A stretch of 56,759 nt of DNA, filler included, from Dugesia japonica (Eukaryota), in NCBI GenBank assembly GCA_001938525.1. It is 5 parts of 5 records of this genome, joined end to end, with 100 filler letters (N's around TTAATTAATTAA, not from the genome) between each part and the next. Parts side by side here need not be neighbours in the genome. Positions count along the whole stretch, not along the records: positions 1 to 10,719 come from MQRL01496685.1; 4 more parts are not named here. One strand, given 5' to 3'. This document shows, piece by piece, positions 1-20,540 of this stretch (position 1 is its first letter; each line of letters starts with the position of its first letter). Under the pieces are notes generated by a model. The model ran no database searches, was not told where the DNA came from, and saw nothing but the letters and a program-made list of their open reading frames with translations. The position numbers and the translations under genes are program-made.

Positions 1-188
1 CCCGGTTCAAGTTTTTCTTCTTTATCATTAATTTTAAATTTATTATTTTCCACAGTGACATTAAAAATGATATTTTAACATGCAAAACATAATAACCCTA
101 ATTCATACTCTGCATCTAGTTCTATAGGATATTTTAAATGCATTCTTAAATTATTTTCTCTATTAACTATTAAGAATTGGTTTGACAT
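1..188 (-). pseudogene. Minor capsid protein (penton) N-terminus, truncated by window edge, one in-frame stop
   Basis: Manual translation from ATG at 188: MSNQFLIVNRENNLRMHLKYPIELDAEYELGLLCFAC*NIIFNVTVENNKFKINDKEEKLEPG. PIELD-x-YELGL...NV...NNKF...PG is the typical Polinton penton start. TAA at 75-77. Absent from the ORF track. Confidence 0.72.
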
Positions 189-355
189 TATGCTTGTTGC
201 TATTTATTATAAATAAAAATTATGCTTGCGTAGCAAGCTTTATTAATTACCAGTATTTAGGATTTAAATGTGTCACTCCATTACGATAAACCGTTTTGGG
301 AATGACACATTTAGGATTTAATATTTACATCTAAAGCCTGCTACGCAGACTAATT

Positions 356-940
356 TTATATTCCAAGTTTCACTTTCATTTCATTAATAACTTTTCTTAA
401 ATCTTCATCATCATTTTTCTTATTTTTTACATGTTTATTATTTGAAATTATTTCATGAACTTCATTAACCATATTTTTACTAATTGCTAATTCTTCATCA
501 GTTAANNNNNNNNNNNNNNNNNNNNNNNNNNNNNNNNNNNNNNNNNNNNNNNNNACAGCTTCAAGTTTTTTAATTAATTTTTCATATCTTTCTTTTCTTG
601 ATTTTATTACTGATGAATTTATTGTCCCTATTACAGGCAGGACTGAAATTGCCCCTGTCAAAATAGGAATCCCGATTGTTACCAAAGGCACTCCAACTGG
701 GGCGATCAATATGACACCGGCAATTCCAATCCCTGCACTAACAATTATTTGTGTAATTTTAATACTTGAATCAATTCTATTCCATCTTCTATGAATTTTT
801 TTATAATGATTAATTTTATCTTTTATAAAGTAAAGGTCATTCTCAAAATCTTTTATTCTAGATAATGCTAATTTATTTTTTAAATCTAAAATTGTATAGT
901 TTTTACTTTCATCAATATTCGGATATAAATTCTCACCCAT
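356..940 (-). CDS. Adintovirus GasderminX-like membrane protein
   Basis: 194 aa with a central Gly/Ala-rich hydrophobic hairpin (IIVSAGIGIAGVILIAPVGVPLVTIGIPILTGAISV) between charged helices, and a C-terminal LTDEE motif. Layout matches the conserved Polinton/adintovirus membrane ORF. Contains an N gap. Confidence 0.6.
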   Translation of the reverse strand: MGENLYPNIDESKNYTILDLKNKLALSRIKDFENDLYFIKDKINHYKKIHRRWNRIDSSIKITQIIVSAGIGIAGVILIAPVGVPLVTIGIPILTGAISVLPVIGTINSSVIKSRKERYEKLIKKLEAXXXXXXXXXXXXXXXXXLTDEELAISKNMVNEVHEIISNNKHVKNKKNDDEDLRKVINEMKVKLGI

Positions 941-957
941 TTTATATAGGTGAAAAA

Positions 958-1800
958 TTAACTATATGGAGGTATTAATGAAATAATAATTTCATGAATG
1001 TAATTATCTTTAGGAATCTCTATTTCAACAGAATTTGAAAACTTTGATTTTTTAATTCTTTTGTTTTTTAAATGAATACTTGATGTTATAAAAATAAAAT
1101 GATTTCTACTTTCTATAACTCGAAGAGGAACAAGTTCTTGTTTATTAACAAATAGATTAATTGTGGGTTTATAGCTAGGATATTTTCCATAACCTGTAAT
1201 TGTAAACCATAAAACCATCTCAAAAGTTCCAGTTATAATAATTTTTAAGGCATCTTCAAGATACCAATATGAAATCCCATTTTTAATTTTAAAAACTCCA
1301 TTTAATCTTGAAAATTCAATATTAGTAATTCTTATTTCTTGATAATTTTTAAAAGAATAAGATGGAAGTTTTGGATGTTGACTTGAATAAGTAAGACCAA
1401 ATATCATATAGAATTTACTTTTATTAGGAATTACCTTTTCCATTTCCATATATGGAAAATAATTATAAATTATTTGTTTTATTTTATATTTAGTTTGTTC
1501 AGATTTATTTTTTTTAAATTCTTGAATTAAACTATTAATTTTATTAATATTTGATTGATGGAAATCTTTTTTTATTTTTTCAAATTCAACAAGTGTAGGA
1601 TTAATATTTTTCTCAAAGAATTTAATTTTTGTTTTAAGTTCTTCAATGAGGGATATGGAATTTTGAAAAGTTTTTTCATCTAAATTATCAGGTAAAACAT
1701 TGACTTTATTTAATATTAACTTAATTTCTTCATTAAAATTTTTATTATTTCCTACTTCATTTAATTTTAATAATAAATCACTTTTATTATATTTTGGGGA

Positions 1801-1858
<58 letters not shown>

Positions 1859-2355
1859 GTTATTGTCTCAGTAGGTTTATTAGATGTAAAACTATCAATC
1901 TTTAAAGAAAGTTTAGAAAATAATAATTCATGAGTTTTTATTTTATCTTCTAAATTTTTAACATAATTTAAATTAACTGGATCAGTAGGTTTATTAGATG
2001 TAAAACTATCAATCTTTAAAGAAAGTTTAGAAAATAATAATTCATGAGTTTTTATTTTATCTTCTAATTTTTCTTCCAACTTATTATATTTTAAATCTTT
2101 AGAATCATCTTTTATTTTTAGAGTTGTTTTTTCAATTTCATTAATTTTATCTTCTAAATTTTTAATATATTTTAAATTAACTGCATCTTTTAAATCTTTA
2201 GGATCATCTTTTATTTTTAGAGTTGTTATTGAATCTCCAGTTTCATTAACAAATTTATTTTCATTTTTCACATCTGAAATTTTAAATTTTGCATCAACTT
2301 TCTTTAATATTTCTTTTGAATTTATTTTTTTACTAGTTTGACCAAATTTATTCAT
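958..2355 (-). CDS. Putative fibre/spike-like virion protein (coiled-coil repeats, poly-Asn, beta-rich C-terminal domain)
   Basis: 465-aa ORF. Repeated DPKDLKDAVNLKYI / DPVNLNYV resembles the D-A-V-N-x-x-Y-V fibre neck motif. Internal duplication of LEDKIKTHELLFSKLSLKIDSFTSNKPT. AAT microsatellite encodes poly-N. Confidence 0.45.
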
Positions 2356-2374
2356 CTTTACTATTTATTAATTA

Positions 2375-2821
2375 CTAATATTTAGATGCCACATTAACAT
2401 CTAATTTATCATACAAATTTTTCATCTCATTTATTATTTCCTCGAAATTATTATCTCGAATCTTGTATAAAAAATAAATGCATAAAATACCACAAATATT
2501 TGTACCAAAATGTTGAACTTGAATTTCATTATATTTCCTGGTATATTTAGCTATATTTTCCAAAGGTTTTAATCCAAAAGAATCAAAATAATATCCACTA
2601 CTATAGCATGTCCAATGTGTTCCTTTTTGATTTGAATTTTGATAATTAAAAATATAATAGGAAGGCTTGTCTTCCTTTTTTGATTCCATCAAATTAGGAA
2701 CCTCATTCTTCATATAAATTTCTAGATCCAAATTTAAAAAATCTGCTATTGAATATAAATCAAAATTTGTAGTTGTATTAATTCCAAATGTTTTTAAGAA
2801 ATCTAATAAATTATAATCCAT
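2375..2821 (-). CDS. Adenain/Ulp1-like cysteine maturation protease
   Basis: Catalytic His (GTHWT), Asp (YFDSFG), oxyanion Gln (QVQ) and Cys (ICG) in the order and spacing of Polinton proteases. Confidence 0.92.
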   Translation of the reverse strand: MDYNLLDFLKTFGINTTTNFDLYSIADFLNLDLEIYMKNEVPNLMESKKEDKPSYYIFNYQNSNQKGTHWTCYSSGYYFDSFGLKPLENIAKYTRKYNEIQVQHFGTNICGILCIYFLYKIRDNNFEEIINEMKNLYDKLDVNVASKY

Positions 2822-2871
2822 TTTATTTAAGATTTAATTTCCATCACGATTAATCGTATTGGAAATTTTAT

Positions 2872-2946
2872 TATAATAAATAGCATAATAAAGTAAGGAT
2901 AATAGCATAGTAAAGTAAGGATAATAGCATAGTAAAGTAAGGATAA
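2872..2946 (+). repeat. Tandem 22-bp repeat (ATAATAGCATAGTAAAGTAAGG) x~3.3 ending at an ATG
   Basis: Directly visible; the last unit runs into ATG 2946. Confidence 0.9.
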
Positions 2947-3233
2947 TGGAGAATCTTATTAGTTATTTAAATGAAGCTGTAATGGAAATATTATCACTCC
3001 CCCAAAGTGATGATGATTTTTTTTTTAAATATTTAAAGAATAATTTAATCAGTGCAATAAGACTTATTAGTCAAATGAAAATTACAATTAATCATAAAAA
3101 TAATTCTGGATCAGTATTTATAAATGAAGATAAAATTAAAATAAGTAAAAATGAAAATAAAATTAAAATAATAAGTAAAAATAAAAAACGTAAAAATAAA
3201 ATAAATTTTGGATCAATATTTGAAAATGAATAA
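2946..3233 (+). CDS. Viral hypothetical protein, paralogue of the N-terminus of ORF 5625
   Basis: 95-aa ORF. ENLISYLNEAVMEI...FFKYLKNNL aligns ungapped with ENLINNLHDAIMEI...FFRNLQYNL. Confidence 0.6.
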   Translation: MENLISYLNEAVMEILSLPQSDDDFFFKYLKNNLISAIRLISQMKITINHKNNSGSVFINEDKIKISKNENKIKIISKNKKRKNKINFGSIFENE

Positions 3234-3291
3234 TTGTTCCCGCACACCGGCGTCTCGGAACAAAAGTATAATTAAATTATTTCTATAGAAA

Positions 3292-3906
3292 ATGGAAGTA
3301 ATAATGGACATGTTAAAAAAAATAAAACAAATGTTAAAAACGAAAAAATATGATAAAATAAAAATGAATGAATTAACTAAAGAAGTTAAAATTATACTTC
3401 AAATAATTGAAGAACTTAATCAAAATAATAATATGGCCAATCAAAATAATAATATGGCCAATCAAAATAATAATATGGCCAATCAAAATAATAATATGGC
3501 CAGTCAAAATAATATGGCCAGTCAAAATAATAATATGGCCAGTCAAAATACCCCAGTTACTGAAAGTATAATTCGTGAAGGTGTATTATTATCTGAATCC
3601 GAATCTGAAATTAGTTATTATGAGTCAGATTCAGATTTAGATTTAAATTTACCAAATGTACCCGCTACACCACTTGATATTGTAAAAAAACCAAGAATAG
3701 CTATTAAAGATAAAGATAATATACAATTATTAAGAAATAACTTTGAATATATTCATATTGAAAATTCATCCGTTCCTCAAATTGAAGAACCAAAATTTAA
3801 AATACCACATAAACTTACTTTAATGGATTTACCATTAGAACCATGTAAGAATGAGATGACTACACGAAAAACTTTTATTAAATCGGGAAAAATAAGAAGA
3901 ACATAA
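3292..3906 (+). CDS. Viral hypothetical protein with (NQNNNMA)n repeats
   Basis: 204-aa ORF preceded by TTCTATAGAAAATG; 21-bp coding tandem repeat at ~3418-3550. Confidence 0.7.
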   Translation: MEVIMDMLKKIKQMLKTKKYDKIKMNELTKEVKIILQIIEELNQNNNMANQNNNMANQNNNMANQNNNMASQNNMASQNNNMASQNTPVTESIIREGVLLSESESEISYYESDSDLDLNLPNVPATPLDIVKKPRIAIKDKDNIQLLRNNFEYIHIENSSVPQIEEPKFKIPHKLTLMDLPLEPCKNEMTTRKTFIKSGKIRRT

Positions 3907-3909
3907 GAA

Positions 3910-4767
3910 GTGGATAATGAAGATCAAGTGTCATTACAAGCAACTCAACAATCATTTAAATGGGAATTAATTCAATCATTTAGTGCTAATAGATGTGGTG
4001 GTGTTACTAATGAAAAATTAAAAATAGAAAATTATAGAGAACATTGTGCTTTTTACTTAACTCAAGATGAATGGTGTTTAATGATGCAATATAAAGAATG
4101 GGCAGCCCAATTGGCCAAATGTAAACAGGGTACATTAATTTCATATGCCCAATTGGGATCAATTTTCTATGCATTGAAACTAAAATTTTTTAATTTGACA
4201 AATAAGAGATTTAATAGTGAAGCATTTTTGAATTTCATAGCAGGATTTAAAATCCACCACTCGATGAGCTATATAAATAGATTAATTAGATTTGCTCGAA
4301 TGGTGGAAAGATGGCCCGCACTTGTTAGATCTAGTTTTACATTTAAAAAAATTCAAGAACATTTTGCAGAAATTGAAGATATAATAGGAGATCATATGGA
4401 TGATGAAAACTTTCAATCTCTTGGTCAGTTGAAAAATGAATTTAAGAATTCAGATCCAAAGGTAATAAAATGGATTGAAGATAATAAAATTACAGATCAA
4501 AGAAATAGACATGTAGAAGATGAATATGATGATGATATTTATTTAGGTACTCCAGATGTGGTTACAGAAAGAGAATCTGAAACTAAAATTGAAGATGATG
4601 ATGAAAGTAATGATGATGATAAAGATAAAGATAAAAATAAAAGTAATGATGAAAGTAATGATGAAAGTAATGATAAAAGTAATGATGAAACAGAAACTGA
4701 TTCTGGATCAGAAATTGAAGATACAACAACTCCATTTACAGATGAACAATTAACATTATTTGATTAA
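3910..4767 (+). CDS. Viral hypothetical protein (helical domain plus acidic tail)
   Basis: 285-codon open frame (GTG at 3910; first ATG at 4081). Complex non-repetitive core (SYINRLIRFARMVERWPAL) and Asp/Glu-rich tail. Confidence 0.7.
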   Translation: MDNEDQVSLQATQQSFKWELIQSFSANRCGGVTNEKLKIENYREHCAFYLTQDEWCLMMQYKEWAAQLAKCKQGTLISYAQLGSIFYALKLKFFNLTNKRFNSEAFLNFIAGFKIHHSMSYINRLIRFARMVERWPALVRSSFTFKKIQEHFAEIEDIIGDHMDDENFQSLGQLKNEFKNSDPKVIKWIEDNKITDQRNRHVEDEYDDDIYLGTPDVVTERESETKIEDDDESNDDDKDKDKNKSNDESNDESNDKSNDETETDSGSEIEDTTTPFTDEQLTLFD

Positions 4768-4808
4768 TTATTTAGCCATTTAATTTTAAAGTTTAATTTT
4801 ACATTAGT

Positions 4809-5561
4809 TTAGAATAAGTCATCAAGTAATTCATCTGATTCTTTATTTAAAAAAAAGTAATTATACTTTGTCTTCCAGTGAAGATTAACTTCATGATCAT
4901 ACTCTAACTTATTATTAAAAATATTTGAAAATAATTCATGATAAACGTTATCTCTATCGGTTTTATTTAATTTAAAAAATATGTAACAATTAGAATTATT
5001 TCTGATAGAGTTTTTATCCAGATGATAATAAGTTTGAGAAATATAAATCACATTACAATTTGAATGACGTCCACGGGTAAAATAACTTTTTTGTATCTCT
5101 TGATTTTTCTCATTAACAACGTCATCAAAAATAATTAAATTTTTCTTATCTTTAGAAAGTCTATCACAAGGAATAATTTCATTTGGTTTATTACTTAAAG
5201 TAACATTTATGGATCTTGATTTTTTAGTTATCATTTTTTTAGAAATATAAAAATCATAAACTTGATATGGAGTTAAGCAAGATTCAGGAACTAGATTTTG
5301 ATTTCGAAACATTGATGTTATTTCTTGTTTAGATAAACCATTTTCAAAACCAATATAAAGTAATTGAATTTCAAATTGATTTATCGTTGTAGAGTAAATA
5401 ATTAAATTATCATAATCTAGGAAATCGGGTGTTAGGAGCATTTTCATTAATAGTACATTTTTACCACAACCTGATGACCCTATAATTAATAATCTAAAAT
5501 TATTTGGAAGTATTTTATTATTAAATTTTGTTAAATTTTTAGTCCATATTAATTCAGTCAT
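4809..5561 (-). CDS. A32/FtsK-HerA family genome-packaging ATPase
   Basis: Walker A IIGSSGCGKN, Walker B LIIFDD, TRGRH arginine finger, ISQ sensor and IRNN motif. Confidence 0.93.
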   Translation of the reverse strand: MTELIWTKNLTKFNNKILPNNFRLLIIGSSGCGKNVLLMKMLLTPDFLDYDNLIIYSTTINQFEIQLLYIGFENGLSKQEITSMFRNQNLVPESCLTPYQVYDFYISKKMITKKSRSINVTLSNKPNEIIPCDRLSKDKKNLIIFDDVVNEKNQEIQKSYFTRGRHSNCNVIYISQTYYHLDKNSIRNNSNCYIFFKLNKTDRDNVYHELFSNIFNNKLEYDHEVNLHWKTKYNYFFLNKESDELLDDLF

Positions 5562-5624
5562 TATGTCACTATACTATTTATTATAATAATAATATTAACA
5601 TGTTTAAAATTTAATTATAGAAAA

Positions 5625-6258
5625 ATGCCAGGATTATTTAAAATAGAAAATCTTATTAATAATTTACATGATGCTATTATGGAAATAAAATTAAATATAA
5701 TAAGTAGTGATAGAGAATTTTTTAGAAATTTACAATATAATTTAGAAGACACATTACAAATTATGAAGTATATATCAGAAAATAAATGTGAATCAGAAAT
5801 TGCTATTAAGCATTTTAAGAATCTAGATATATATGGAAATGAAATTGAACCTGAAAAAATAAAATCTGAACCTGAAATTGAATCTGAACCTGAAATTGAA
5901 TCTGAAATTAAATCTGAAATTAAATCTGAAAAAATAAAATCTAAATCTGAATCTGAATCTGAATCTGAAATTGAATTTAAAAAAGTGTTTGAAAATATAA
6001 GTTCCAAAGTTGAAAAAATAAAATCTGAAAATATAAGTTCCAAAAATGAAAAAATAAAATCTGAACCTGAAATTGAATCTGAAAAAATAAAATCTGAATC
6101 TGAATCTGAATCTGAATCTGAATCTGATCTGAATCTAAATCTGAATCTGAATTTGAATCTGAATATGAAATTAAAAAAATAAAACCATTAACAGAATTGG
6201 GTAAAAAATTAATTCAAAGAGGAAAAATAAATAAGAAAGTGATGATAAAATTTTAGCA
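5625..6258 (+). CDS. Viral hypothetical protein with ESE/KIKSE low-complexity region; probable 1-nt frameshift near 6127
   Basis: The GAATCT hexamer run loses one A at ~6127, giving NLNLNL. Restoring it reads ...SESEFESEYEIKKIKPLTELGKKLIQRGKINKKVMIKF*. Preceded by TTATAGAAAAATG. Confidence 0.6.
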
Positions 6259-6318
6259 TCTTATGAATCAAAACAATTAACGAAGAATGTATTAAAAGTG
6301 AGTCATCCATGACCTATA

Positions 6319-7197
6319 TTAATAATTAGTTTTCTGTAATTCATTAGAATAAAGTCTTCCAATAATTTCTTCACCACTTAAATGACTGACTTGGTATGTG
6401 TATGGTTTTGTTTTATAAATTTTTGTAAGAATATAAATTCTCTTTGACCATTTTAAAGTATAACTCTTTGGAAATGTTTTCTTGATAATAAAAATTCTTA
6501 CTCGATCTCCAATCTTAAATTTTGGTTTTTCCTTTAAATCATAATTTTCAGTCATATTTTTTTCATTCTGAATCCGGATAATTTCTGGATTTTTTGTTGC
6601 CGCCTGGGGTGTTTCTTTTATTGATGAATGGATGGTATTGTTGTAATCATTTACAATTTCTTTTAATAGTTCAGATGTAATATCTTGATTTCCAACGGCA
6701 GTAAAATGTTTAAAGAGTCTATTTTTAAGGGTACGGTTAAATCTTTCAATAACTACTGCTTTACCTTCATTTTCTGTTGAATATAAATTTATTTGATTTT
6801 CATCACAAAAAGATTTAAAATGTTTATTATAAAATTCAGTTCCCTTATCTACCCATAAATTATTTGGAACTCTATGAGTATCATTTAAACTTTTACGAAA
6901 TGCATTTGTTACATTTACTCCAGTTTTCTTTTTAAAATTCTCAATAAAAGCATAACGAGTATAAAGATCAATTACTGTTAATATTACCCATTTATTTTTT
7001 CTTTCAATTCCATGGAAAATTAAATCAGCTGACCAAATATCATCTTTATTATGAACTACTACTTTTAGAAAATGTTTTGGTTTTCTATATTCATGATGTA
7101 ATTCATTAACAAGATTTTTATTATTATTGGGAACTGTATTATTATTATTGTTGGGATCAAATGAGGGGACTTCGTCCCCAGATTCATTAACAGTATC
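6319..7197 (-). CDS. Polinton-type retroviral-like (rve, DDE) integrase; C-terminal part of a PLA2-integrase fusion
   Basis: Uninterrupted 292-codon frame: ELHHEYRKPKHFLKVVVHNKDDIWSADL...VIDLYTRYA...LWVDKGTEFYN...KAVVIERFNRTLK...YNNTIHSSIKETP...FKIGDRVRI. D-D-E triad intact. No Met until 6555, so the ORF track shows only the last 78 aa. Confidence 0.93.
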   Translation of the reverse strand, partial: DTVNESGDEVPSFDPNNNNNTVPNNNKNLVNELHHEYRKPKHFLKVVVHNKDDIWSADLIFHGIERKNKWVILTVIDLYTRYAFIENFKKKTGVNVTNAFRKSLNDTHRVPNNLWVDKGTEFYNKHFKSFCDENQINLYSTENEGKAVVIERFNRTLKNRLFKHFTAVGNQDITSELLKEIVNDYNNTIHSSIKETPQAATKNPEIIRIQNEKNMTENYDLKEKPKFKIGDRVRIFIIKKTFPKSYTLKWSKRIYILTKIYKTKPYTYQVSHLSGEEIIGRLYSNELQKTNY

Positions 7198-7738
7198 CTA
7201 TTAATAACACTCTTTCTAATAGATTGTCCAATTATTATTTTACCTTTCATTGCTAATTTTACAAGAGCTCTTTGTATTTTTCACTGATAGTTGGATTAGG
7301 AATATTATTTAAATCATGAATCAAATTTACATCAGCAATATGACGATCGCGTATATCGTTAGATGAATAAGCAATGTCATGTTGCAATGCTGCAGCATCA
7401 ACTTGATTAATTGGTTCTTCTCCAGGTTTTGGATTATTATTTTCATCAAGTCTCAAATCTAATCTAGTTCCTGGTCCAGTGTAATTATGTTTAAATAAAT
7501 GTCTTTCACCTGGATATTTTTCTGTAGTAAATGGTTTTAATAATGTTGATGTTAACTTACTAGATTGAAGATCTCCTCCTTTATGAGGGCCTCCTTTATG
7601 GGTTTTAGGATATGGTTTCTGTTTCACATTATTTAAACATAAATCTAAATGTCTCGATCTATTTTTCATCTTTATAATTTTACCACAATTATCGCACATG
7701 TATTTTTTGTACTTGGGTACACCTGAAGGATGTGCCAT
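7198..7738 (-). CDS. C2HC zinc-finger-like motif + parvovirus-VP1-type phospholipase A2 domain
   Basis: CDNC-x11-H-x3-C, Ca-binding loop HNYTGPG and catalytic DAAALQHDIAY...AD. After a 1-nt shift at ~7271 it continues RALVKLAMKGKIIIG, the usual tail of this PLA2 family. Confidence 0.88.
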
Positions 7739-7927
7739 TTATTAATTGTTAAATTTAATATAAGGATAAAAATTTTACATTTGACATTTTATAATAAATA
7801 ATTGGTCCACGTAGTGGGTCTTTTGGGTCCCTTTGGGGTTAAAGTTTAATTTTACATTTTAATTTTAAATATTAACATTTGACATTTGGGTAAAACATAG
7901 CTTGCTTCGCAATCTTTTATTTATTTC

Positions 7928-9238
7928 TTATTTAATATAAACTCCCTTTAAATTATCAATCATAACAATTCTACCATTTGATAATCTCATTTCAACATGT
8001 TTCTCTTCAAGAATGCACCAATATAAACTTCCTTGGAATTGGGGATCTTTTGTAATATTTAAAGTTACATCAACATTATTAACTGATAATTTTTCATCTT
8101 GTGCACTGACATCAAAACAAAACATTGGATATAAATTTTTAAAATCCATTAATGATACTTGAGGTTCACATAAAAATTCTCTACAACAATTGACATAATT
8201 CATATAAGGGAAAATCATTTCATTATTAACCAAATTAAATTTACATTCATTAGCAGGATAATTTGTATTATTTAATGTTAACTGAATACTGTTAATATAA
8301 TGATAAGTTGTAACTTTTTCTTTTTTATCATTTTCTTTAGTTATGCTAGATCTTTGTATAAATAAATTATTATTCTTTTCAAATGAACTATCAGTTTCTT
8401 TTATGCAAATAAAAATATATCTTGGTCTATATGGTAAACTTGTTAATTTTATTGCACATCTTCCTCCTTGTGGTAAATNNNNNNNNNNNNNNNNNNNNNN
8501 NNNNNNNNNNNNNNNNNNNNNNNNNNNNNNNNNNNNNNNNNNNNNNNNNNNNNNNNNNNNNNNNNNNNNNNNNNNNNNNNNNNNNNNNNNNNNNNNNNNN
8601 NNNNNNNNNNNNNNNNNNNNNNNNNNNNNNNNNNNNNNNNNNNNNNNNNNNNNNNNNNNNNNNNNNCGATTACATTTTAATTCAATCATTGTATTGTATA
8701 CTACTCTATTATAATTTTGTAAAAATCCAAATAAATTTCTTAATGGGAAGTAACCTTCGAATTTTTTACTTTCATAAAGTTTTCTTCGATTATAATAACC
8801 AAGATTACAGTCCCAAGATGTTACATCAGTATTTCCTTTATTAACATCGGGTAACCATCCAGATAATTGTCCATATTCTTTTTTCCATGTTTCNNNNNNN
8901 NNNNNNNNNNNNNNNNNNNNNNAAATTGTTCCTGGTTCATAAATAGTTTCCACATCTGATGACCCTAATTTTAATGTAATATTTTTGAATAAATTTGGGA
9001 AAAAATTATTTTCTAAGGTGATTTTTGCTGGATCTGAGGGGGTGATTTCAATTGTAAAATATAACATCGAATTACAGATATCCAGTGCATTTGATGATTG
9101 CAGGGATTGGAAAATAATATCTCCCGATGTCATTAAATGATTAATCGATCCTGATGAGGGTGAAATTTTAAGGATATCATTTTTTACTAATGGATGTGTA
9201 AATTCAATATTATTATCTAACTCAATCTTTGATCCCAT
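7928..9238 (-). CDS. Double-jelly-roll major capsid protein (hexon-like)
   Basis: ~436 aa with N gaps. Motifs LENNFFPNLFKNITLKLG, PLRNLFGF, RPRYIFI, LNNTNYP and FKNLYPMFCFDVSAQ are typical of Polinton MCPs. Confidence 0.85.
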   Translation of the reverse strand: MGSKIELDNNIEFTHPLVKNDILKISPSSGSINHLMTSGDIIFQSLQSSNALDICNSMLYFTIEITPSDPAKITLENNFFPNLFKNITLKLGSSDVETIYEPGTIXXXXXXXXXXETWKKEYGQLSGWLPDVNKGNTDVTSWDCNLGYYNRRKLYESKKFEGYFPLRNLFGFLQNYNRVVYNTMIELKCNXXXXXXXXXXXXXXXXXXXXXXXXXXXXXXXXXXXXXXXXXXXXXXXXXXXXXXXXXXXXXXXXLPQGGRCAIKLTSLPYRPRYIFICIKETDSSFEKNNNLFIQRSSITKENDKKEKVTTYHYINSIQLTLNNTNYPANECKFNLVNNEMIFPYMNYVNCCREFLCEPQVSLMDFKNLYPMFCFDVSAQDEKLSVNNVDVTLNITKDPQFQGSLYWCILEEKHVEMRLSNGRIVMIDNLKGVYIK

Positions 9239-9273
9239 TTTCTATAGATAAAATTTAGAACTGAAATTATTAT

Positions 9274-9412
9274 CGTTACTGTATCCTTACCATTACTTTA
9301 CCATTACTTTACCATTACTTTACCATTACCTTACCTTACCTTACGTTACCTTAACCTTACCTTAACCTTACTGTAACCTTACTGTAACCTTACCATAACC
9401 TTACCTTACTGT
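9274..9412 (-). repeat. Degenerate (TTACC/TTACT)-based tandem array upstream of the MCP gene
   Basis: TTTACCATTAC x3, then CTTAC / ACCTTA / CTTACTGTAAC units. Confidence 0.85.
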
Positions 9413-9696
9413 AATGCTTTTTTCATATTAATAAATAAATTATCATAATTTTTAACACCAGAATTATTTTTAATGGTATTTAAATTTTTCATTGACTCTT
9501 TTTTTTCAAATCGATCAATTGAGGAAATAAAACTGCCATGTGAATTTCTTTGCAAATTTCTGGATGGATTTCACGATCTGGTATTGTATTCAATTTCCCA
9601 TTTTTTCAAATATTTTTTTACCGTTTTTTCATTAATGTTATTAGCTTTACAAAAAGCACTTATTGAATTATTTTTAAAATTATAATCATTTAACAT
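9406..9696 (-). pseudogene. Small HTH-like protein with an in-frame TGA
   Basis: MLNDYNFKNNSISAFCKANNINEKTVKKYLKKWEIEYNTRS*NPSRNLQRNSHGSF...MKKALQ*. HTH-like pattern; TGA at 9571-9573, then the frame stays open for 54 codons. Confidence 0.5.
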
Positions 9697-9723
9697 TTTA
9701 TAAAATACTGAATTTGCATCCAT

Positions 9724-10332
9724 TTATTTATGTTTTAATTTGGCATATGCTCTATCAATTCCAGTTAATTCTTTTTTGGCTTGTATTCGAGTATATTTAT
9801 TTTGTGATAAATCATTCATATTTAAATTCTTAGTTAAATTATTAAAAAGTTTTGCAGTTAAATATGGATTTTTATTTTTTGGATTAATATGGCATACTAT
9901 GTCAATATCATCAATTATTACTGGTTTTGTTTGTTCACCCAATCTTAATAAAGCTTGATTATGTTCATCTCGTTCTCTTTGTAAAATTTCTTGACATCTT
10001 TGAAGAGATTTTTTTAATTCATTATTTTGTTCTGCATATAATTGAAGTAATAAACCTCTACTATCACTTTCAGTATATTTTGTAACAAGAACAGTCATTA
10101 TTTTTTTAAACATTTTATTATTCTCTTCTGGTAAGTCTAAATCCTCTAATTTTTTATATAATGCTTCAATATAATTTAAATAAGATTCTGCAATTTCTTT
10201 TGTTAAACTATTATTTAAATATTCTTTTATTTCTGATAAATTAATCTCTTCTATATTATCAAAATTTTTTATTGAATTTATTACTGTAACTAATGTTAAC
10301 TCACTAACAACTTTTTCTTTATCGGCACTCAT
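9724..10332 (-). CDS. Viral hypothetical coiled-coil protein
   Basis: 202-aa ORF preceded by CCCTATAGAAAATG. Confidence 0.7.
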   Translation of the reverse strand: MSADKEKVVSELTLVTVINSIKNFDNIEEINLSEIKEYLNNSLTKEIAESYLNYIEALYKKLEDLDLPEENNKMFKKIMTVLVTKYTESDSRGLLLQLYAEQNNELKKSLQRCQEILQRERDEHNQALLRLGEQTKPVIIDDIDIVCHINPKNKNPYLTAKLFNNLTKNLNMNDLSQNKYTRIQAKKELTGIDRAYAKLKHK

Positions 10333-10371
10333 TTTCTATAGGGAAAATTTAAGAAATTTTATTTTTCATGA

Positions 10372-10472
10372 TTTCAGAATTTTTATTTTTATTTTCAGAT
10401 TATTTTTTATTTTCAGATTATTTTTTATTTTTATTTTTATTTCAGATTATTTTTTATTTTCAGATTATTTTC
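10372..10472 (+). repeat. TTCAGATTATTTTTTATT-like tandem repeats
   Basis: About five TTCAGA(A/T)T units separated by T-tracts. Confidence 0.75.
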
Positions 10473-10719
10473 ACCGGATAGGATTTTGTTATCTGGATTA
10501 TTACTTTTAAAACGGGGGGGGGTCAAAATGCTGTTTTTTTAATTTATGATTTATTTTTAGTTTTTCTTTGTTTTTTAAAGTAATTTAATGTAGTATGGTG
10601 TTATTGGGTATGTAAAATGTGAAATGTATAAAATATGGGTAGGGTACGGTAAATAAAATTAATATTTAATTTAATTTTATTTTTTGGTTTTTTAATTATT
10701 TTTAATTATTTCTTGATTT

Positions 10720-10819
10720 NNNNNNNNNNNNNNNNNNNNNNNNNNNNNNNNNNNNNNNNNNNNTTAATTAATTAANNNNNNNNNNNNNNNNNNNNNNNNN
10801 NNNNNNNNNNNNNNNNNNN
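10720..10819. other. Artificial 100-nt contig spacer (44N-TTAATTAATTAA-44N); identical spacers at 20441-20540, 30151-30250, 39169-39268
   Basis: Same length and six-frame-stop core four times. Confidence 0.97.
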
Positions 10820-10920: not shown

Positions 10921-13900
10921 ATGGGAAGTTTATTTAGAAGTGAGGAAATGACACTTTGTCAGTTATTTTTGCATACTGACTCTGCCTATTCTTGTATTTC
11001 TCAGTTGGGCGAACTGGGGGCTATGGAATTCATTGATGTAAATTTTAAAATTCTTCAATCATTTTATATGCATTTTTTCAGACAATTCCAGAGACTAACG
11101 CTTTTCAAAGAAAATTTGTAAATGAAGTTAGGCGTTGTGATGAAATGGAACGCAAACTAAGTTACCAATTAACATTAATTATTTTTTTTAAATAGTTCTT
11201 CAGGATATCTAGAAAAAGAAATTAACTTGGATGTAATTCCGATTCTGGATACAGGAGATAACCCACCAGCCCCTGAGCCCCGAGAAATAATTGATTTAGA
11301 AACTAATTTAGAGGGCATAGAAGAAGATTTAAAAGAAATAAATCATAATTATGAACAATTGAGAAAAAATTATTTTGAACTTATAGAACTTCACTACTTA
11401 TTGCAAAAAACAAAAGTGTTTTTTGAGGGGGTTAGATTTATATTGCTTTTAGTAAATCCAAATTTTTGTGCTTTGGTGTTTTTATAGGGTGTTGAATCCC
11501 GATTATTACAAGATCACGATCCTAATAGCGATGATAAAGAATCTGTCATGGTTGAAAATTCTAATATGAGGTGATTTTAATAATTTTAATTTCCTCAAAA
11601 TGATTATCCCCTATTATAATAAATAATAATTATTGTAACTACATCTTATACAGGATTCTGATTCATTAATGATATCAGTTGGTTCTGTCACTGAAAATAC
11701 GGAAATTTATAAAATGGAAGATAGATTACTTGAACATAGATTAGTAGATACAAATAAGGACAATTATAAAGTAGAGTGAGTTATCTTTATCTCAAAATGA
11801 AGTTTGAATTAAAAATTTTATTTTGTGTTAATTAATAATTTTCTATATTTGAATCAACATTTGAAGTTTTTTGAGATAATTTTAAAATAGTGATAATTAA
11901 AAATACGAGTTCTAACAAAATAAAATTATGTAATGCCAATTATGATATGGGTTTCCATTGGCAATATTGTGTAATAATTGTGCTAAGAAAGCGCAAATAT
12001 ATTTTTGTAAAATTTTATGATATTTTTTAATAATGCAGATTCATATCTGGAGTTATTCTAAGAGAAAAGATCCCAGGATTTGAACGAATGCTTTGGAGAG
12101 TCTGTCGTGGAAACGTTCTTATTAAGTTCAATGAAATTGAAGTAGACCTTGAAGATTTAACAACAGTTTATTAATTTTGTAATTGGTATAATTAAATATA
12201 AATTTTAGACAAATAAAAAAGTTAAAAAATCAGTTTTCGTGGTGTTTTTTCAAGGTGAACAGTTACATCTTCGCGTGAAAAGGATATGTGAAGCGTAATA
12301 TATTAAATGTTTTTTCGTATTTATTAAAACACCAAATAGGTATCATGCAACGATTTATCCTTGTACAGACAACCCAAATGAAAGTAAAGACATGATTCGA
12401 AATGTTATGACTCGAATGGAAGAATTAAAGAAAGTAATTGATCAAACTGAAAGTCACCGGCATAATGTTTTGATAACAGCTGCAAAACATATTAGAATAT
12501 GGTTCATTAAAATTCGTAAAATCAAAGCAATTTATCATATTCTTAACCTCTTCAATGTTAATGTGACAGATAAATGTATGATTGGAGAATGTTGGTGTCC
12601 AGTTAATGATATTGAAGCCATTTATGCTGCACTTCGTCTTGGAATGGAGAAAAGTAACGGAACAATTCAACCTATTTTAAACCGATTAGGGGATAATGTC
12701 AAAAAGTCTTTTCCACCAACATTTAATCGAGTAAATAAGTTCACATCTGCATTCCAAAACATTGTTGACGCATATGGAGTTGCTAATTATAGAGAAGTGA
12801 ACCCAGCACCATACACTGTGATAACTTTTCCATTTCTATTTGCTATAATGTTTGGGGATTGCGGCCATGGGTTGATTATGTTTTTATTTGCTTTAATAAT
12901 CATCCTAAGAGAAAGAAGTCTACTTAAACAAAAATCTGATAACGAGATTTGGAATATATTTTTCGGGGGTCGCTATATAATTTTGTTAATGGGTATTTTC
13001 TCAATATATACCGGATTGATTTACAATGACGTCTTTTCTAAATCTTTTAATATTTTCGGTACAAATTGGTATCCTGGAAACTATTCATTATCTGATATTG
13101 ATTCAAGTCCCGAATTACAGCTTAATCCAGGTAATTCAACTGTTTTTCTCGACCACCCATATCCATTTGGAATTGATCCAATCTGGCAACTGGCAAAAAA
13201 CAAAATCACATTTACAAACTCTTTGAAAATGAAAATGAGTATCATTTTTGGAATTTTTCAAATGATGTTTGGTGTAATATTGAGTCTGATTAATCAATGG
13301 TAAAAACATATTGATTTAATTATATTGATTTGAAAATTTAAATTTTTTTAGCTATTTCAAAGATTATCTTAGTATTCTCACTGAATTTATTCCACAAGTT
13401 TTATTTCTACTAGCGATTTTCGGATACTTGGTCGTTGAGATTTTCATAAAATGGGTTACATATACAGCAACTATGTCACACTGTGCACCATCACTTCTAA
13501 TTGGTCTTATCAATATGTTTATGTTCACGAAATCTGATGAAACCACTATCCCATGTTCAAATAGACCATTATTTAATGTAAGTTTTTCTATGATCATTTC
13601 TTCATATGCATTCATTCATTTAATTAAACTTTTCATATTATTAATAATGTTTGATAACTCAATAGGGTTTTGGAGTTTAAGGTGGAATTTTANNNNNNNN
13701 NNNNNNNNNNNNNNNNNTACCTTCGGCAGAAATTTAATTAATAATAATGCTTAATACAACAAATAATATCATTCAATATTCAAATTTATTGTTGATCATT
13801 TTCTGAGGTTGAGATATTTTTTCTAAATAATTTCTAGTTTAAAACGAATATTTTCCATAGCAATGAATTACTAGATTTTGTGCAGAAATTCAGGAATTAT

Positions 13901-14956
13901 AATTCAAAAAAGATAGTCCGAGCTAAATAAGTCAGTGTTTTTTGTTCAGGGATACAAATATTTAGTTTGCGTTTTGTAATTGGTGAAATAAGGAATATAC
14001 AGCAGGAATACAAACTGTTGTTTCCTTGGTATTTCCGGTTTAAAAAATGTTAAAATATGGAGCCGTAATAGAATTTCCGCTCATCTATAATGCAATATTA
14101 CATAAAAATTTATATAAAATATGGAAACATCAATAATTATTATTTTGATATTTTATTTTAGTCGCAATTTGAAGTTCAAAGCGCGCTTGTTGTTATCGCT
14201 GTGATTTGTATTCCGTGGATGCTAATTATCAAACCAGTGGTTTTAATGGTATCGCATTCGAAAAAACACAAAGTAATTCTTTTGAGTGAATAATTAGTTT
14301 TACAGGAATTATTTTTTTACAGAAAAGATCACAATCCACTTTATTATTAGATCCTGGTCATATAAATGACGGTGCTGATATTGATCATTCATTAAAGAAT
14401 CCNNNNNNNNNNNNNNNNNNNNNNNNNNNNNNNNNNNNNNNNNNNNNNNNNNNNNNNNNNNNNNNNNNNNNNNNNNNNNNNNNNNNNNNNNNNNNNNNNT
14501 TACCATATAAAATATTTAGTTCGAAATGGGTGAAGTCTTTGTTCATCAATGTATTCATACAATTGAATATTGTCTTGGTTGCATTTCAAATACAGCATCT
14601 TACTTACGATTATGGGCTCTTAGTTTGGCTCATGCCCGTTAGTTATATTATTGTAATTTGTTGAATTAGTATAATTCTGTTTGTTTTTAGAGTTGTCTGA
14701 AGTTTTATGGCAAATGGTACTCAGTATTGGACTTAAACAAAGCAGCTTAGGTGGATCAATAATTTTGTTTTTTGTATTCGCAGCTTGGGCGGTATTAACA
14801 ATTGCGGTACTTTTATTAATGGAAGGATTATCGGCATTTTTACATGCTCTTCGTTTACATTGGGTTGAATTCCAAAACAAATTTTACAAAGGTGAAGGTT
14901 ACAAATTCAATCCGTTCAATTTCAAGGGTGTCGATGATTTAAGTTTAGATATATAA
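10921..14956 (+). CDS. ATP6V0A: V-type proton ATPase 116-kDa subunit a (multi-exon host gene)
   Basis: [59 protein letters not shown]...[20 protein letters not shown] (essential Arg), [23 protein letters not shown] introns at 11038-11081, 11161-11203, 11431-11487, 11571-12038, 12166-12208, 12295-12339, 13300-13351, 13578-14161 and 14638-14690; exons near the 14.4-kb gap are uncertain. Confidence 0.97.
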
Positions 14957-16386: not shown

Positions 16387-16797
16387 TTATAATTCATCCA
16401 AAGCGCCAGGGTCGAGCCACTGGGCTGGGTCAGTTAACAAAAAATTGAACGAAGCTGTATCGTCGTTGTCGTCCCATTGCACCCAAGTGGGGTTGCCAAG
16501 TTGGCGAGAGAGGTCAAAAATATATTGCTTTAAGAAGTCGATTTTCCTTTGCAAGGATTGTTTAATTTCTTCTTTGAGGGTTTTTGTTTGGACAGCTAGC
16601 TTGCTTTGTTTTTTAACTATTATATCAAGTTTCTTTATCAGTTTATCTCGTTGAATGAGATGCTTTAAAAGTGCCCTGCCTGTTTTCCGTTTAAGGTGCC
16701 TTTCTACTAAGAGACGGCGCATTATTCTGTGAAAACGTCGAATACTATTCGGAAAGATAATGTGAGGCACTGAAAGAAAATTATTAATGATATTCAT
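16387..16797 (-). CDS. Orphan basic/coiled-coil protein with acidic-aromatic tail
   Basis: 136-aa ATG-initiated ORF. C-terminal motif conserved at protein level in the 15869-15955 copy. Confidence 0.6.
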   Translation of the reverse strand: MNIINNFLSVPHIIFPNSIRRFHRIMRRLLVERHLKRKTGRALLKHLIQRDKLIKKLDIIVKKQSKLAVQTKTLKEEIKQSLQRKIDFLKQYIFDLSRQLGNPTWVQWDDNDDTASFNFLLTDPAQWLDPGALDEL

Positions 16798-16838
16798 ATC
16801 TCATTTATGAGAAAACTAAATGTAAAGACGGAAATAGT

Positions 16839-17246
16839 TCAGACGAAATTAAACACAATAGAAAAATATATTAAATTGAAGTAAAACACGGGTTTACGGA
16901 CGAGAGATCTGGGCCCCTTTATCAGCGGTGTTAAGGGCATGGCTTTCCTCAAGTTCATAATATCTCCCACCAGTTTATTCTCACGGTCTTGGTTGAACTG
17001 GATAATATCGGTAAGGGACTCTAACTGTGCCTTCCAAACTCGTTCTAGTTGATGTGACGCCTCGGCTTCCGCTTTGAAAGCCAGGCATTTCCTTTTGTAA
17101 CGCTGAACTTTGGCAGCTGCGGTTGCTACATCCTCCTCCCAGCCCCGTTTGGCCAACTTATATAGGTCCCAAGTAATCTCGGTGTCATCATTAGAAGCCC
17201 TTACTTTCTTGGTCGGGGCCGCAACACGATTCAATGAGGAGTGCAC
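16839..17246 (-). CDS. Orphan coiled-coil ORF/exon
   Basis: 135-codon frame, GC-richer than the host, starting at an acceptor-like TTTATTCTAG. The hydrophobic AT-rich tail is probably non-coding read-through. Confidence 0.45.
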   Translation of the reverse strand: MHSSLNRVAAPTKKVRASNDDTEITWDLYKLAKRGWEEDVATAAAKVQRYKRKCLAFKAEAEASHQLERVWKAQLESLTDIIQFNQDRENKLVGDIMNLRKAMPLTPLIKGPRSLVRKPVFYFNLIYFSIVFNFV

Positions 17247-20200
17247 TAGAATAAACGAGATTGATCAAACATGATATAAAGATTTGGTGAATAACATCAA
17301 CCACTTACATCTATTGTTACTCGGTGGACATTTTATCTATCGTTAAGGTTAATTTTAATAAAAGGAAAATTTACGTGACAAAAGATTTGGTTAAAAATCC
17401 GGAACAATTATATATTTTATTTTAACACACCAAAAAAAATAAATCACTAATGAGTAGGTGCTGAATCAGCCACGGGTGCGGTATTCTCAGAATCTTCGCT
17501 ACCCGAGGGTTCTCTTACACCCCATAATAAATTGTTAATAAAGGCCTGCATCGCTGGGGGTAGGGCGGAAGGTTGATAGTGGAATGACGTGGCAAGGGTT
17601 TGGTCATGCCCCGTTCAGATCTGATAACTTTGTCGCTTACCAAAGTCTTGGATCCTGGCGACCATGGCCTCTACCAGAGGTAAGTTAGACCGATCGGATA
17701 AAATACCGGCATCCCGACGATGAGGGTTTCTATGTCGTCGGAAAATGATGCGACGAGTCCTGCGGTCAATCACTCTTTCCCATATTGATTCCATTCTGGA
17801 ACATAAAATTTAATTTATCATAACAGACCAGTACATTAATTAGTAAACTGAACAGATAAAAATAAGAAATAAAGATTTAAATTGGACATTTAATCAGGCA
17901 TAAAAAATTTTATATTTCAATGAAATTAGTTGTACTCTCGCAGAGACCTTCCGTTCTCATCTATATCAATTTTCGCAGTCGACGGAAACATCTCGGTGAA
18001 GCAAATCAAAACCGTTTCGTCAGGATGCCTAATTAGACTGGGAGCTATGAGATGCCCGATTAATTGCCTTTTGCGTGATTGTTCGCGCTCTCGTTGAATA
18101 AATTGAAGAGTCGATAGGAGTATATTCGACATGGAGTATCTGAAACTGATACACAATTATTATACCATTAGCAAAAAAAATTAGTTATTCCACAGGTTTT
18201 TATTGTTCACCGGTAAAAGAAACACTCGCAACTTTACTATAATTGAGTATGACAAGAACTAATTCACTTCTGAGAGTGCTTGAGAACCTGAACATAATAG
18301 TCAAGGTAAATAACAGGGTTAGTCGCGAATAGCACTATTTCCTTTTTCTTATAAATTGGGTAAGATTTGCGTCCACAGGATTTGGTTAATAATGCTAGTC
18401 AGTAGTTTCAGTGGTGACGATATGACTTTTAATATCCCTAATAGTGAATGTTTAACCATCAATTATTGCACTAATAATAAACCCATTTATTATTATTTTA
18501 ATAATTATACGGAGGTTATGATATCCACATATGATTATATATCCTTATTATAATGTTATTTGAATGTTATTAACTGTTGTTAGTTATAATTAGAATCTTA
18601 TTTATTCTTATCCCCCTGATTTTAGCTGTTAAAAACCATGATAAATATTCGGTCATATAATGTATTTTTAATTGTGATTGAATTTGGGCGTTATGGGTAA
18701 CCTAGCACCACGAAGGTCACATCAGGTCTGTAGTAATAACCCNGCTGGCGTGTAAAAAAGAAAATAATATCTGTAGGTGTGCAGAATAATTTTATTTTAT
18801 ATCGACTAATTTAACACCATCACTAGTAGTGGTTTTCTTGTTACCTCATTTACATACTACGGCAACTTAATTCACTGTCGATGTTAGTTGGTCATTGTAT
18901 ACACGGAAAATTGCATAACTAACATGCGGATATTCCGTTGATATTATCTTTAACAAATCGACTCAATTTTGTGCAAATCACGTAAGTAAATAATTAATCA
19001 GTTGACTTTATCCACCAAAATATTTTTATTGTTAATAATAGTAATATAAAAATAATAAAAAAAATATTAAAATTTAAAAATTTCATTAAATCATCGCAAT
19101 AATTATATTATTGTCTTATAGCATAACAGATTACCCACTGGTAAATGATTCTGAAAGAATTTCTGCAACGCTTGCTATAAATTATTGGTGAAATAAAGGA
19201 ACAATCTTTTGAATATAGGTAATGGTTGTCGTACTTCTGCTGTTACGAAAAATTGAAGCTAATTTATGATCAAAATAATATAATTACTTTGTAGCTTGGC
19301 AGCAAATTGATCTATGGGAAATAACTAATCACGTCTTTTTTCAATAAATTATAATGGTGGTAGAATAACTGTTCTCGGATAATCGTCGACTTCGCAGTTT
19401 TTTTTGTAGTTGACTTTTCAGTTGTTTGTGGTTTGCAGTTGATTTTTTGTAGTTGAAGTTATAGTTGTAGTTGTTTTTCAATTTGTGTTTTTTCTGCTAA
19501 TTCCATGATTCCTTTTATACAATTTTTCTTCGCACCCCAACTTTTTCCATATTCGCTGGTTATTTTTAATTTGATTTTACTGCTTTCGATTGGTTCTACT
19601 GCCAATTTTCTGAAATTTTTTCAGAGTTTTAGAGTTCCAATTGGCGGCTATTTTTAAATCATCAGGTGAGGTTTAGTGCTTTGTTTTATTTTTTTAATTT
19701 CAGGATGCTATTGGACCAATCTTAGAATCTTCGTGGGAGTCCTCTAGATGGTGGTACCAGTTTCTTGTGTCAAAATTTCAATGACCTGATCCAAATCCTT
19801 CCCGAATTTTCTTCTGCCCANCTCCTGTGTCTTTTGGTTGTAAAGTTATTCGTATAAAACGAGTTTTTTGCTAATTTTGGTTTATTTTATTTCTGAATTA
19901 ATTAATGTTTTTTCTTTTTAAAATAATTATTTTGATTAATGATTTTCTTGTTTTTATTATTGATTTTGTTAATTTTCCGAATTCAATGGATTGGTGTACA
20001 TCATCTTTATTCACCCAATTTTTCTATGGTCATCTTCTGAATTTTTCACCCTTTTAAAGATTTATATGTAGCGTCTGATTTATGATCGGGACTGTTTCTT
20101 TTCCTAACGTGCTCTTGTGTTGCCCTTACTATTCTTCTTTACGAATTGGAGCTTATGTGGTTTTGTTTCATTAACTAGGTGTTTCACCCCAACACTTGCA

Positions 20201-20540
20201 TAATAGTAAGATTAAAAATAAAATTTCGCATTTAGAAATAGAAAATGGGATTATTTGATACGTTTGATGGGCTACGAAGCTGCAATATTTCTTTTTCTGG
20301 TCATATGCTTCAAGCGTTTACATTAAAAATAGCTAAAGGGCTACATTTTTACGATTTTAAGGCTTCTTACGGATGGTTGCAAAAATTTAAACTACGAAAC
20401 GATTTTGTTTTTAGGAAACTAATTAGGGAGTCAGAGTCCGNNNNNNNNNNNNNNNNNNNNNNNNNNNNNNNNNNNNNNNNNNNNTTAATTAATTAANNNN
20501 NNNNNNNNNNNNNNNNNNNNNNNNNNNNNNNNNNNNNNNN

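Follow-up and report, generated by a model that had tools for sequence, protein, structure and literature searches.

The stretch of DNA analysed here (hereafter the window; 56,759 nucleotides of the Dugesia japonica assembly GCA_001938525.1) consists of five concatenated scaffolds separated by four identical 100-nt spacers. The scaffold at positions 1-10719 is, with near certainty, a partial and lightly broken virus of the Polinton type. It is 88% coding and free of introns, its left edge lies inside a gene at the window start and its right edge at a spacer, and it carries genes for a double-jelly-roll major capsid protein (MCP), a genome-packaging ATPase, an adenain-like protease and a phospholipase A2 (PLA2) fused to an integrase, along with a putative penton gene, a membrane protein and a set of orphans (Table 1). 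An earlier reading of this DNA from its sequence (the original prediction) had described it as the virion module of an endogenous adintovirus or Polinton in a compact AT-rich genome. 

Capsid, packaging and maturation genes

The MCP is recognised both by sequence and by fold. Its gapped window protein matches Pfam family PF21738 at E 3e-5, and a relative, P0001, does so at E 2e-27. Homologues numbered 22 among 950 candidates, with identities of 29-59%, and the window protein keeps 79 of 87 columns conserved among its relatives. An AlphaFold model built from a 19-row alignment (pLDDT 79, pTM 0.81) retrieved viral double-jelly-roll capsid or scaffold proteins in all 30 rows shown of a Foldseek comparison with PDB, and viral double-jelly-roll capsid proteins in the first 16 of 50 rows of a VIA fold search. 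The best VIA match was a capsid chain of Paramecium bursaria chlorella virus 1 (PBCV-1; Z 17.2, root-mean-square deviation 3.6, 290 aligned), with further matches to Sputnik (Z 17.0) and mavirus (Z 15.6), the latter at 10% identity in the fold alignment. The original prediction had staked itself beforehand on a double jelly roll at this place, and the fold was confirmed. In the MCP tree, which includes no reference sequences and therefore gives no assignment to adintovirus class (Alpha or Beta) or Maverick-Polinton group (1 or 2), the window protein groups with five relatives (99/97) on a long end branch (0.57). A pattern search of GTDB genomes for the MCP gave 98 matches, none of which was confirmed; the MCP had no match in phages, and the ATPase none in plasmids.

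The calls of a packaging ATPase and of a maturation protease were likewise upheld. The ATPase matches PF04665 well above the cut-off, and its Walker A, Walker B and RGRH motifs were located, with the residue that follows the Walker A lysine departing from the one canonical at that place. The protease has a match to PF00770 below the cut-off and a relative with the same Pfam lead on a short contig, L001, to which it aligns over 141 amino acids (E 7e-18) with the His, Asp, Gln and Cys positions in register. Searches of PDB sequences with the protease and the ATPase gave nothing significant.

Contig L001 (VBPR01000135.1, 2472 bp) came from a scan of GTDB for the PLA2-integrase, which yielded three loci (L001-L003) from 101 stretches, L002 and L003 at 28-30% identity. 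It is binned in an archaeal metagenome-assembled genome and is probably a mis-binned Polinton-type fragment. Within 2.5 kb it holds relatives of the integrase (47% identity), the end of the MCP (36%), the protease (35%) and the membrane protein at 356-940 (28%), the protease gene being followed by the gene of the membrane protein. A pX-like gene on L001 (PF05829, E 0.002) has no match in the window.

The fragment at the window start may encode a penton, the single-jelly-roll minor capsid protein of Polintons, a label suggested by its position, by a start motif described below and by resemblance; its 62 codons matched no family in Pfam, PHROGs or NCBIfam.

A phospholipase joined to the integrase

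The gene next to the MCP contains a parvovirus-type PLA2 (PF08398, E 2e-9) and an rve integrase (PF00665, E 1e-10). A search with the integrase returned 3470 proteins from 4134 candidates, of which the best 120 were listed, with identities of up to 56%. Three successive frames of the window align with the best match, the 463-residue protein P0023, with identities of 61% in the PLA2, 94% in an 18-residue linker and 55% in the integrase. Since one protein spans all three frames, PLA2 and integrase form a single fused gene here, its reading frame broken twice at about 7.2-7.3 kb, and the PLA2-integrase of the original prediction stands as a single, frameshifted gene.

The two domains do lie in different frames, and a stand-alone PLA2X gene is described by Starrett et al. 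(PMC8502044). One might accordingly suppose that the PLA2 and the integrase are separate adjoining genes, with PLA2X as in Alpha adintoviruses, or that they are joined by programmed frameshifting, so that nothing is broken. This is very improbable and is largely refuted by the match of P0023 across three frames, linker included, by the lack of a Met ahead of the catalytic core in the integrase frame, and by the architecture of the relatives. BLASTP found an N-terminal PLA2 in 55 of the best 120 integrase matches, including 28 of the best 30, as single fused open reading frames (ORFs). With a PLA2 profile the number rises to 81 of the best 120, a count that is circular for the 41 from which the profile was built.

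In a midpoint-rooted FastTree phylogeny of the integrase domain, the window sequence falls in a clade of 73 leaves (support 1.0), and 59 of its 72 relatives there carry PLA2. A second integrase group lies mostly on contigs longer than 100 kb, and 21 of its members on such contigs carry a divergent PLA2, which indicates that chromosome-integrated forms of this architecture exist. The PLA2 His-Asp pair and loop residues and the integrase D-D-E match invariant columns of the relatives, bearing out for these two domains the earlier statement that catalytic residues are mostly intact. Over the whole gene, 93 of 106 conserved columns (88%) are kept, compared with a median of 95% (range 81-99%) in the relatives.

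Glycine motifs flank the PLA2: GG[D/N] precedes it in 26 of 38 relatives and GxG follows it in 32 of 41, and among 391 scan windows a comparable GxG occurs only in the PLA2 loop. The cleavage consensus of adenain is glycine-based, and to judge from these sequences the flanking motifs could be sites cut by the adenain-like protease.

At its other end the protein carries no chromodomain: no chromo family was found in Pfam at E<=0.1, and the ORF ends where P0023 ends. The chromodomain family PF00385 is listed for 2 of the best 120 integrase matches. In one relative, P0096, an adenain-like segment judged by eye takes the place of the N-terminal PLA2, a second type of fusion. We found no description of the PLA2-integrase fusion in the literature searched, which consisted largely of open-access papers and the main texts of preprints.

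Table 1. Features of the viral scaffold, the spacers and the second scaffold, in window coordinates
Feature	Position	Strand	Basis
Putative penton (minor capsid) gene, 5' fragment with one in-frame stop, cut by the window start	1..188	-	ORF
Two-helix membrane protein, SLATT-like (earlier label GasderminX-like), contains a run of N	356..940	-	
465-aa orphan with Lys/Asn-rich repeats, Asn run, 114-nt duplication and hydrophobic C-terminal domain	958..2355	-	
Adenain-like cysteine maturation protease	2375..2821	-	PF00770 E 0.007, below cut-off
Start motif B, AATAAATAG	2875..2883 (+); also 208 (-), 2369 (-), 5582 (-)		
22-nt tandem repeat in three copies, containing AGTAAGG, in the divergent intergenic region ahead of orfA	2879..2947	+	
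orfA, 95-aa orphan	2946..3233	+	N-terminus paralogous to orfC
Start motif A, TATA(G/T)AAA(A) abutting ATG	3284..3294 (+); also 5616 (+), 948 (-), 9246 (-), 10340 (-)		
orfB, 491-codon orphan with N-terminal repeats, helical core, acidic tail and one in-frame stop near 3.9 kb	3292..4767	+	
A32/FtsK-HerA genome-packaging ATPase	4809..5561	-	PF04665 E 2e-10, 40.9 bits vs cut-off 22.8
orfC, orphan with Glu/Ser repeats and a probable frame change in its tail	5625..6182	+	low-complexity match only
Zinc-finger-like tip, PLA2 and rve integrase in one fused gene, no chromodomain	6319..7738	-	
Double-jelly-roll MCP, open frame with two runs of N	7928..9238	-	PF21738, homologues, fold
GTAAGG-rich tandem array upstream of the MCP gene	9285..9410	-	
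50-aa helix-turn-helix protein	9571..9723	-	PF13518 E 9e-4, below cut-off
orfD, 202-aa helical orphan	9724..10332	-	ORF
Non-coding AT-rich scaffold end with short tandem repeats and no known Polinton end motif	10336..10719	.	
Artificial assembly spacer, non-biological	10720..10819	.	44 N + six-frame stop 12-mer + 44 N
Identical spacer copies	10720-10819, 20441-20540, 30151-30250, 39169-39268		sequence identity
V-ATPase subunit a gene, animal-like, with many short introns and one long 1-kb exon	10921-14953	+	

Start motifs, breaks, orphan genes and neighbouring scaffolds

Two motifs mark gene starts on the viral scaffold. Motif A occurs directly before 5 of the 427 ATGs on the two strands of that scaffold, all five at gene starts, and before none of the 1583 ATGs on the other scaffolds. 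Motif B, AATAAATAG, occurs four times, each time upstream of another gene start, and contains TAAAT. For comparison with the 12 starts tested (the first ATG of each frame), sets of 12 first-after-stop ATGs were drawn 5000 times from the viral scaffold. Only 2 draws reached the best 8-mer shared within the final 12 nt, the control for motif A. The best 9-mer in 80 nt was reached in 22 draws and that in 25 nt, the weaker control for motif B, in 86 draws. Motif A is thus solid and motif B moderate; neither is present in exact form on L001. The starts of orfB (3273-3295) and of the MCP gene (9235-9257) share 21 of 23 nt, extending motif A.

Its contact with the ATG rules motif A out as a canonical Pol II TATA box. 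Late genes of African swine fever virus (ASFV) start at TATA with leaders of a median 9 nt, and those of vaccinia at TAAAT (PMC7163114). Mavirus shares a TCTA motif with its helper, Cafeteria roenbergensis virus (CroV; PMC8547959), and this core is present in two of the five motif A sites. By analogy with such giant-virus late initiators, the start motifs offer a lead towards transcription in the cytoplasm that would be driven by a helper. GTAAGG, the word in the two tandem arrays, occurs 13 times on the viral scaffold and 1-4 times on each of the other four. An imperfect 81-nt palindrome (2811-2891) lies where the protease gene and orfA diverge.

The original prediction had counted two in-frame stops and three 1-nt deletions. 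The two stops, in the penton-like fragment and in orfB, stand, as do two frame changes, those between PLA2 and integrase, which the relatives confirm. The third frame change, in the low-complexity tail of orfC, is suggested by a repeat that continues in another frame. A possible further stop near 9.57 kb, beyond which the frame stays open for 54 codons, may be the true end of the 50-residue helix-turn-helix gene. As 6.1% of random substitutions in the viral ORFs would create a stop, a divergence of 0.36-0.55% (95% range 0.04-1.6%) would account for two to three stops, provided that these are real and neutral. With only five or six in all, the breaks fit recent decay and consensus error alike, as had been proposed.

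Three runs of N interrupt two viral ORFs, the MCP gene (two) and that at 356-940 (one). Those in the MCP gene span 10 and 64 codons, and exactly 10 and 64 residues occupy these places in 17 and 14 of 18 relatives, respectively. Since they have the length expected from the relatives, they represent withheld bases and not estimated gaps. Similar runs occur on the host scaffolds.

The protein at 356-940 had been labelled GasderminX-like, a label that found no support. The Atlas match of the protein (0.85) is a lead only, no gasdermin family was found in Pfam at E<=0.1, and none appeared among the 50 fold rows obtained with its L001 relative. The protein instead has a weak match to NCBIfam SLATT_1 (E 0.0037, 17.2 bits against a cut-off of 41, profile positions 6-123 of 132), for which reason SLATT-like is the better, if tentative, name. 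A hydrophobic stretch covers residues ~59-105. Its similarity to the L001 relative (E 2e-10) has a score reached in none of 2000 shuffles, and among 218 candidates no homologue was found at E<=1e-3. The model of the L001 relative is of low confidence (pLDDT 58.5). Its best fold matches are uncharacterised iridovirus proteins (E 2-3e-3), 4 of 50 rows are named SLATT (E 0.7-2.3), no viral fold match reaches E<=1e-3, and the PDB list holds generic helical matches only. SLATT proteins are reported in polinton-like viruses (PLVs) and polisuviruses (PMC12220804; 10.64898/2026.10.13.758929) and are labelled on maps of Hydra and Stylophora adintoviruses (PMC8502044, supplement Fig. S2).

The 465-residue orphan is a fibre candidate. 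It matched no family in Pfam, PHROGs or NCBIfam, and its C-terminal 165 residues had no PDB match. orfA and orfC share an N-terminal domain (BLASTP E 3e-5, 21 of 57 positions identical). The orfB core (3907-4548) had no match among 1.84 billion representatives, and a weak Atlas match (0.94) points to a Mucoromycota cluster with a recognition value of 2070, below the recognition threshold. For orfD, no family was found at E<0.01 in Pfam, PHROGs or NCBIfam.

The spacers, each with a six-frame stop, void any argument from neighbourhood between scaffolds. The V-ATPase gene, which begins 100 nt into the second scaffold and scores best against mammals (426 bits; plants 278, yeast 218), was considered as a host flank and rejected, as an assembly spacer lies between it and the virus. 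That the virus is endogenous in the genome carrying this gene is accordingly not shown by the window, the two being on different scaffolds. Between the viral scaffold and the other four, blastn gave a single match, 48 nt of low-complexity sequence. Rfam and tRNA scans gave no match.

The other scaffolds carry reverse transcriptase and integrase pieces, which by their domain set appear to be of the Ty3/gypsy type, pieces of mariner and Tc5 transposases, and an eIF4E gene. A compact host genome, as originally proposed, is therefore not borne out, the rest of the window being rich in transposon relics. Relics of Tc5/Mos1-type transposase helix-turn-helix, reverse transcriptase, RNase H and integrase lie at 20242-20439, 22105-22332, 32125-32352 and 34064-34324, and more of the same kinds at 36884-37183, 38681-39166 and 48048-49937. 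On either side of the retroelement relic at 48-51 kb lie the copies of a 115-nt direct repeat (47823 and 51963, 93%), which may belong to its long terminal repeats. On the minus strand, two adjoining ORFs of 137 and 141 aa (16390-17264) matched no Pfam family and stand out from the rest by a much higher G+C content at third codon positions (GC3, 0.40-0.51). The eIF4E exon pieces (PF01652; 44198-45375, minus strand) are adjoined by a four-copy array of 102-nt tandem repeats (43504-43918) that is open on the same strand. A cluster of short repeats at 55300-55560 is rich in the palindromic words TGACTCA/TGAGTCA, which we take to be AP-1-like.

Placement and competing readings

The placement among Maverick-Polintons is well supported by the double-jelly-roll MCP, the A32 ATPase, the adenain-like protease and the rve integrase. 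With Maverick-Polintons the viral scaffold shares the PF21738 MCP, these three other genes and dense, intron-free coding, and a phospholipase is common in their group 2 (10.64898/2026.06.19.733378; PMC8097293). It differs from those described there in that its PLA2 and integrase form one gene, that its 10.7 kb include no PZ/pX gene, and that six of its ORFs are orphans or nearly so, three of them on the opposite strand. Alpha and Beta adintoviruses (PMC8502044; PMC11071296) likewise have the same hexon, adenain, FtsK ATPase, integrase and PLA2 domain. Their PLA2X, however, is described as a gene of its own with a pX-like domain at its end, and their integrase has a C-terminal chromodomain, which Buck 2024 (PMC11071296) uses in defining the group. 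The same definition includes a PolB with an N-terminal OTU domain, and no PolB was found in the window, as well as a hexon that BLASTP recognises from the Mayetiola or Terrapene references. Because the window integrase lacks a chromodomain and its PLA2 is the integrase N-terminus, with no stand-alone Alpha-class PLA2X with a pX-like tail, a strict filing under adintoviruses is unsuitable; of the original prediction, the Polinton type is retained and the adintovirus label, in its strict sense, is not.

The nearest kin are other members of a PLA2-integrase lineage (P0001-P0022, P0023-P0142 and L001), which share the fusion and whose MCPs are up to 59% identical. From their sequences, this lineage appears to be widespread in public sequence sets and little described. 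The viral scaffold differs from L001 in having the 465-aa orphan between the protease and SLATT-like genes, and from the lineage in orphans for which no relatives were found. Mavirus and endogenous mavirus-like elements (PMC8547959) are double-jelly-roll viruses of the same integrase-bearing type, with gene-start motifs in mavirus; helper dependence is demonstrated for mavirus and only hinted at for the virus in the window. PLVs of Lepidoptera associated with entomopoxviruses (PMC11296320) have the same parvovirus-type phospholipase.

On balance we favour the reading that positions 1-10719 are the capsid-and-integrase part of a Polintoviricetes virus, a provirus disabled not long ago in an AT-rich eukaryotic host, probably the sequenced animal. 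The replication gene and the other element end would lie beyond the window start. In a working member, the capsid would consist of MCP and penton, linear DNA would be loaded into it by the A32 ATPase, and particle maturation would fall to adenain. PLA2 and integrase would be translated as a single protein that is probably packaged and is probably cleaved at the glycine motifs on either side of PLA2, after which PLA2 could breach the endosome and the integrase insert the genome, while the SLATT-like protein may act on membranes at entry or exit. The data establish the identities of MCP, ATPase, integrase, PLA2 and protease, the fusion, the breaks and the start motifs; integration and the host are inferred, as are packaging and processing of the fusion and what the SLATT-like, penton-like and fibre-like genes do. 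The stop in the penton-like gene and the broken integrase are more readily explained by a dead chromosomal copy than by a virus that still replicates, and the G+C content of the viral scaffold (0.24), near the 0.25-0.31 of the other scaffolds (L001, 0.37), was counted together with the animal-like V-ATPase for residence in the host.

Several observations weigh against this proviral reading. The window contains no junction of virus to host DNA, no target-site duplication, and no terminal repeat pair or long inverted self-match, and no Polinton AG/AGT end motif lies within the last 1500 nt of the viral scaffold, inside which at most one element end can fall. No pPolB was found by motif in a six-frame search of the window or by Pfam among 75 ORFs of at least 62 aa beyond 15 kb, the viral scaffold being cut inside a gene at the window start. 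The pPolB, inverted repeats and 6-bp duplication proposed as checks are thus absent from a window beyond whose start the element continues. Of the original "recently integrated, divergent" lineage, integration is unseen, and divergence does not amount to isolation, given MCP and integrase relatives at up to 59% and 56%. None of the 72 relatives that share the integrase clade with the window sequence lies on a contig longer than 36 kb. The ratio of observed to expected CpG is 0.49 on the viral scaffold versus 0.82-0.98 on the others, and GC3 is 0.07-0.18 in viral genes versus 0.26 in the V-ATPase exon. The breaks could be consensus errors. As regards cleavage of the fusion, the adenovirus protease takes Met, Ile or Leu four places before the cleavage glycine, whereas this residue is mostly Lys at the flanking sites.

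Much of this would suit a free or co-sequenced virus of the Polinton type, from the animal, its food, a host or a contaminant, whose breaks are assembly errors or collapsed variants. We regard this as unlikely, though several points favour it: the virus stands alone as a scaffold, its closest relatives are all on short contigs, its composition is unlike that of the other scaffolds, and the runs of N of exactly expected length show imperfect base calling or masking inside ORFs. Adintoviruses contaminating unrelated assemblies are also described by Starrett et al. (PMC8502044). Against it stand five or six independent breaks within 9 kb, one of them in the penton-like gene, the loss of conserved PLA2-integrase columns relative to the median of the relatives, which leans towards drift, and the presence of similar N runs on host scaffolds. 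CpG depletion as the mark of another, methylating host is not decisive, because the deficit is confined to coding DNA (non-coding ratio 1.02, with 18 observed and 17.7 expected) and GpC is also low.

The start motifs raise the further idea of a virophage-like Polinton, integrated or not, whose genes a co-infecting giant virus (Nucleocytoviricota) would transcribe in the cytoplasm. In 5 of 12 genes motif A directly adjoins the ATG, a distance too short for a Pol II TATA box; its likeness to the ASFV initiator, the vaccinia TAAAT within motif B and the TCTA core shared by mavirus and CroV all point this way, as do the iridovirus proteins that are the best folds of the SLATT-like relative and the occurrence of lepidopteran PLVs alongside entomopoxviruses (PMC11296320). 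The motifs were, however, found after the fact in very AT-rich DNA and in exact form are missing from L001, no giant-virus gene was found among the 75 ORFs tested elsewhere in the window, and an integrase implies entry into the nucleus. We consider this reading improbable, and somewhat more doubtful still its fuller version, an animal-associated virophage-like Polinton combining giant-virus-type late initiators with a packaged PLA2-integrase polyprotein cut by the viral protease.

The element is in one respect ordinary. Animal assemblies contain 20,702 integrase-linked pPolB1 genes in 960 genomes (Jeong et al., 10.1101/2023.08.22.554363), so one more partial Polinton copy is unremarkable, and its value lies in the fusion and the start motifs. 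Virions of Maverick-Polintons have, according to 10.64898/2026.06.19.733378, never been observed. The PLA2-integrase fusion, kept in 81 of the best 120 relatives, suggests that the integrase travels in the virion. If the fuller virophage-like reading were true, endosome escape and integration would be coupled in one gene. The motifs abutting the starts make it testable whether animal Polintons are autonomous nuclear viruses or depend on giant viruses.

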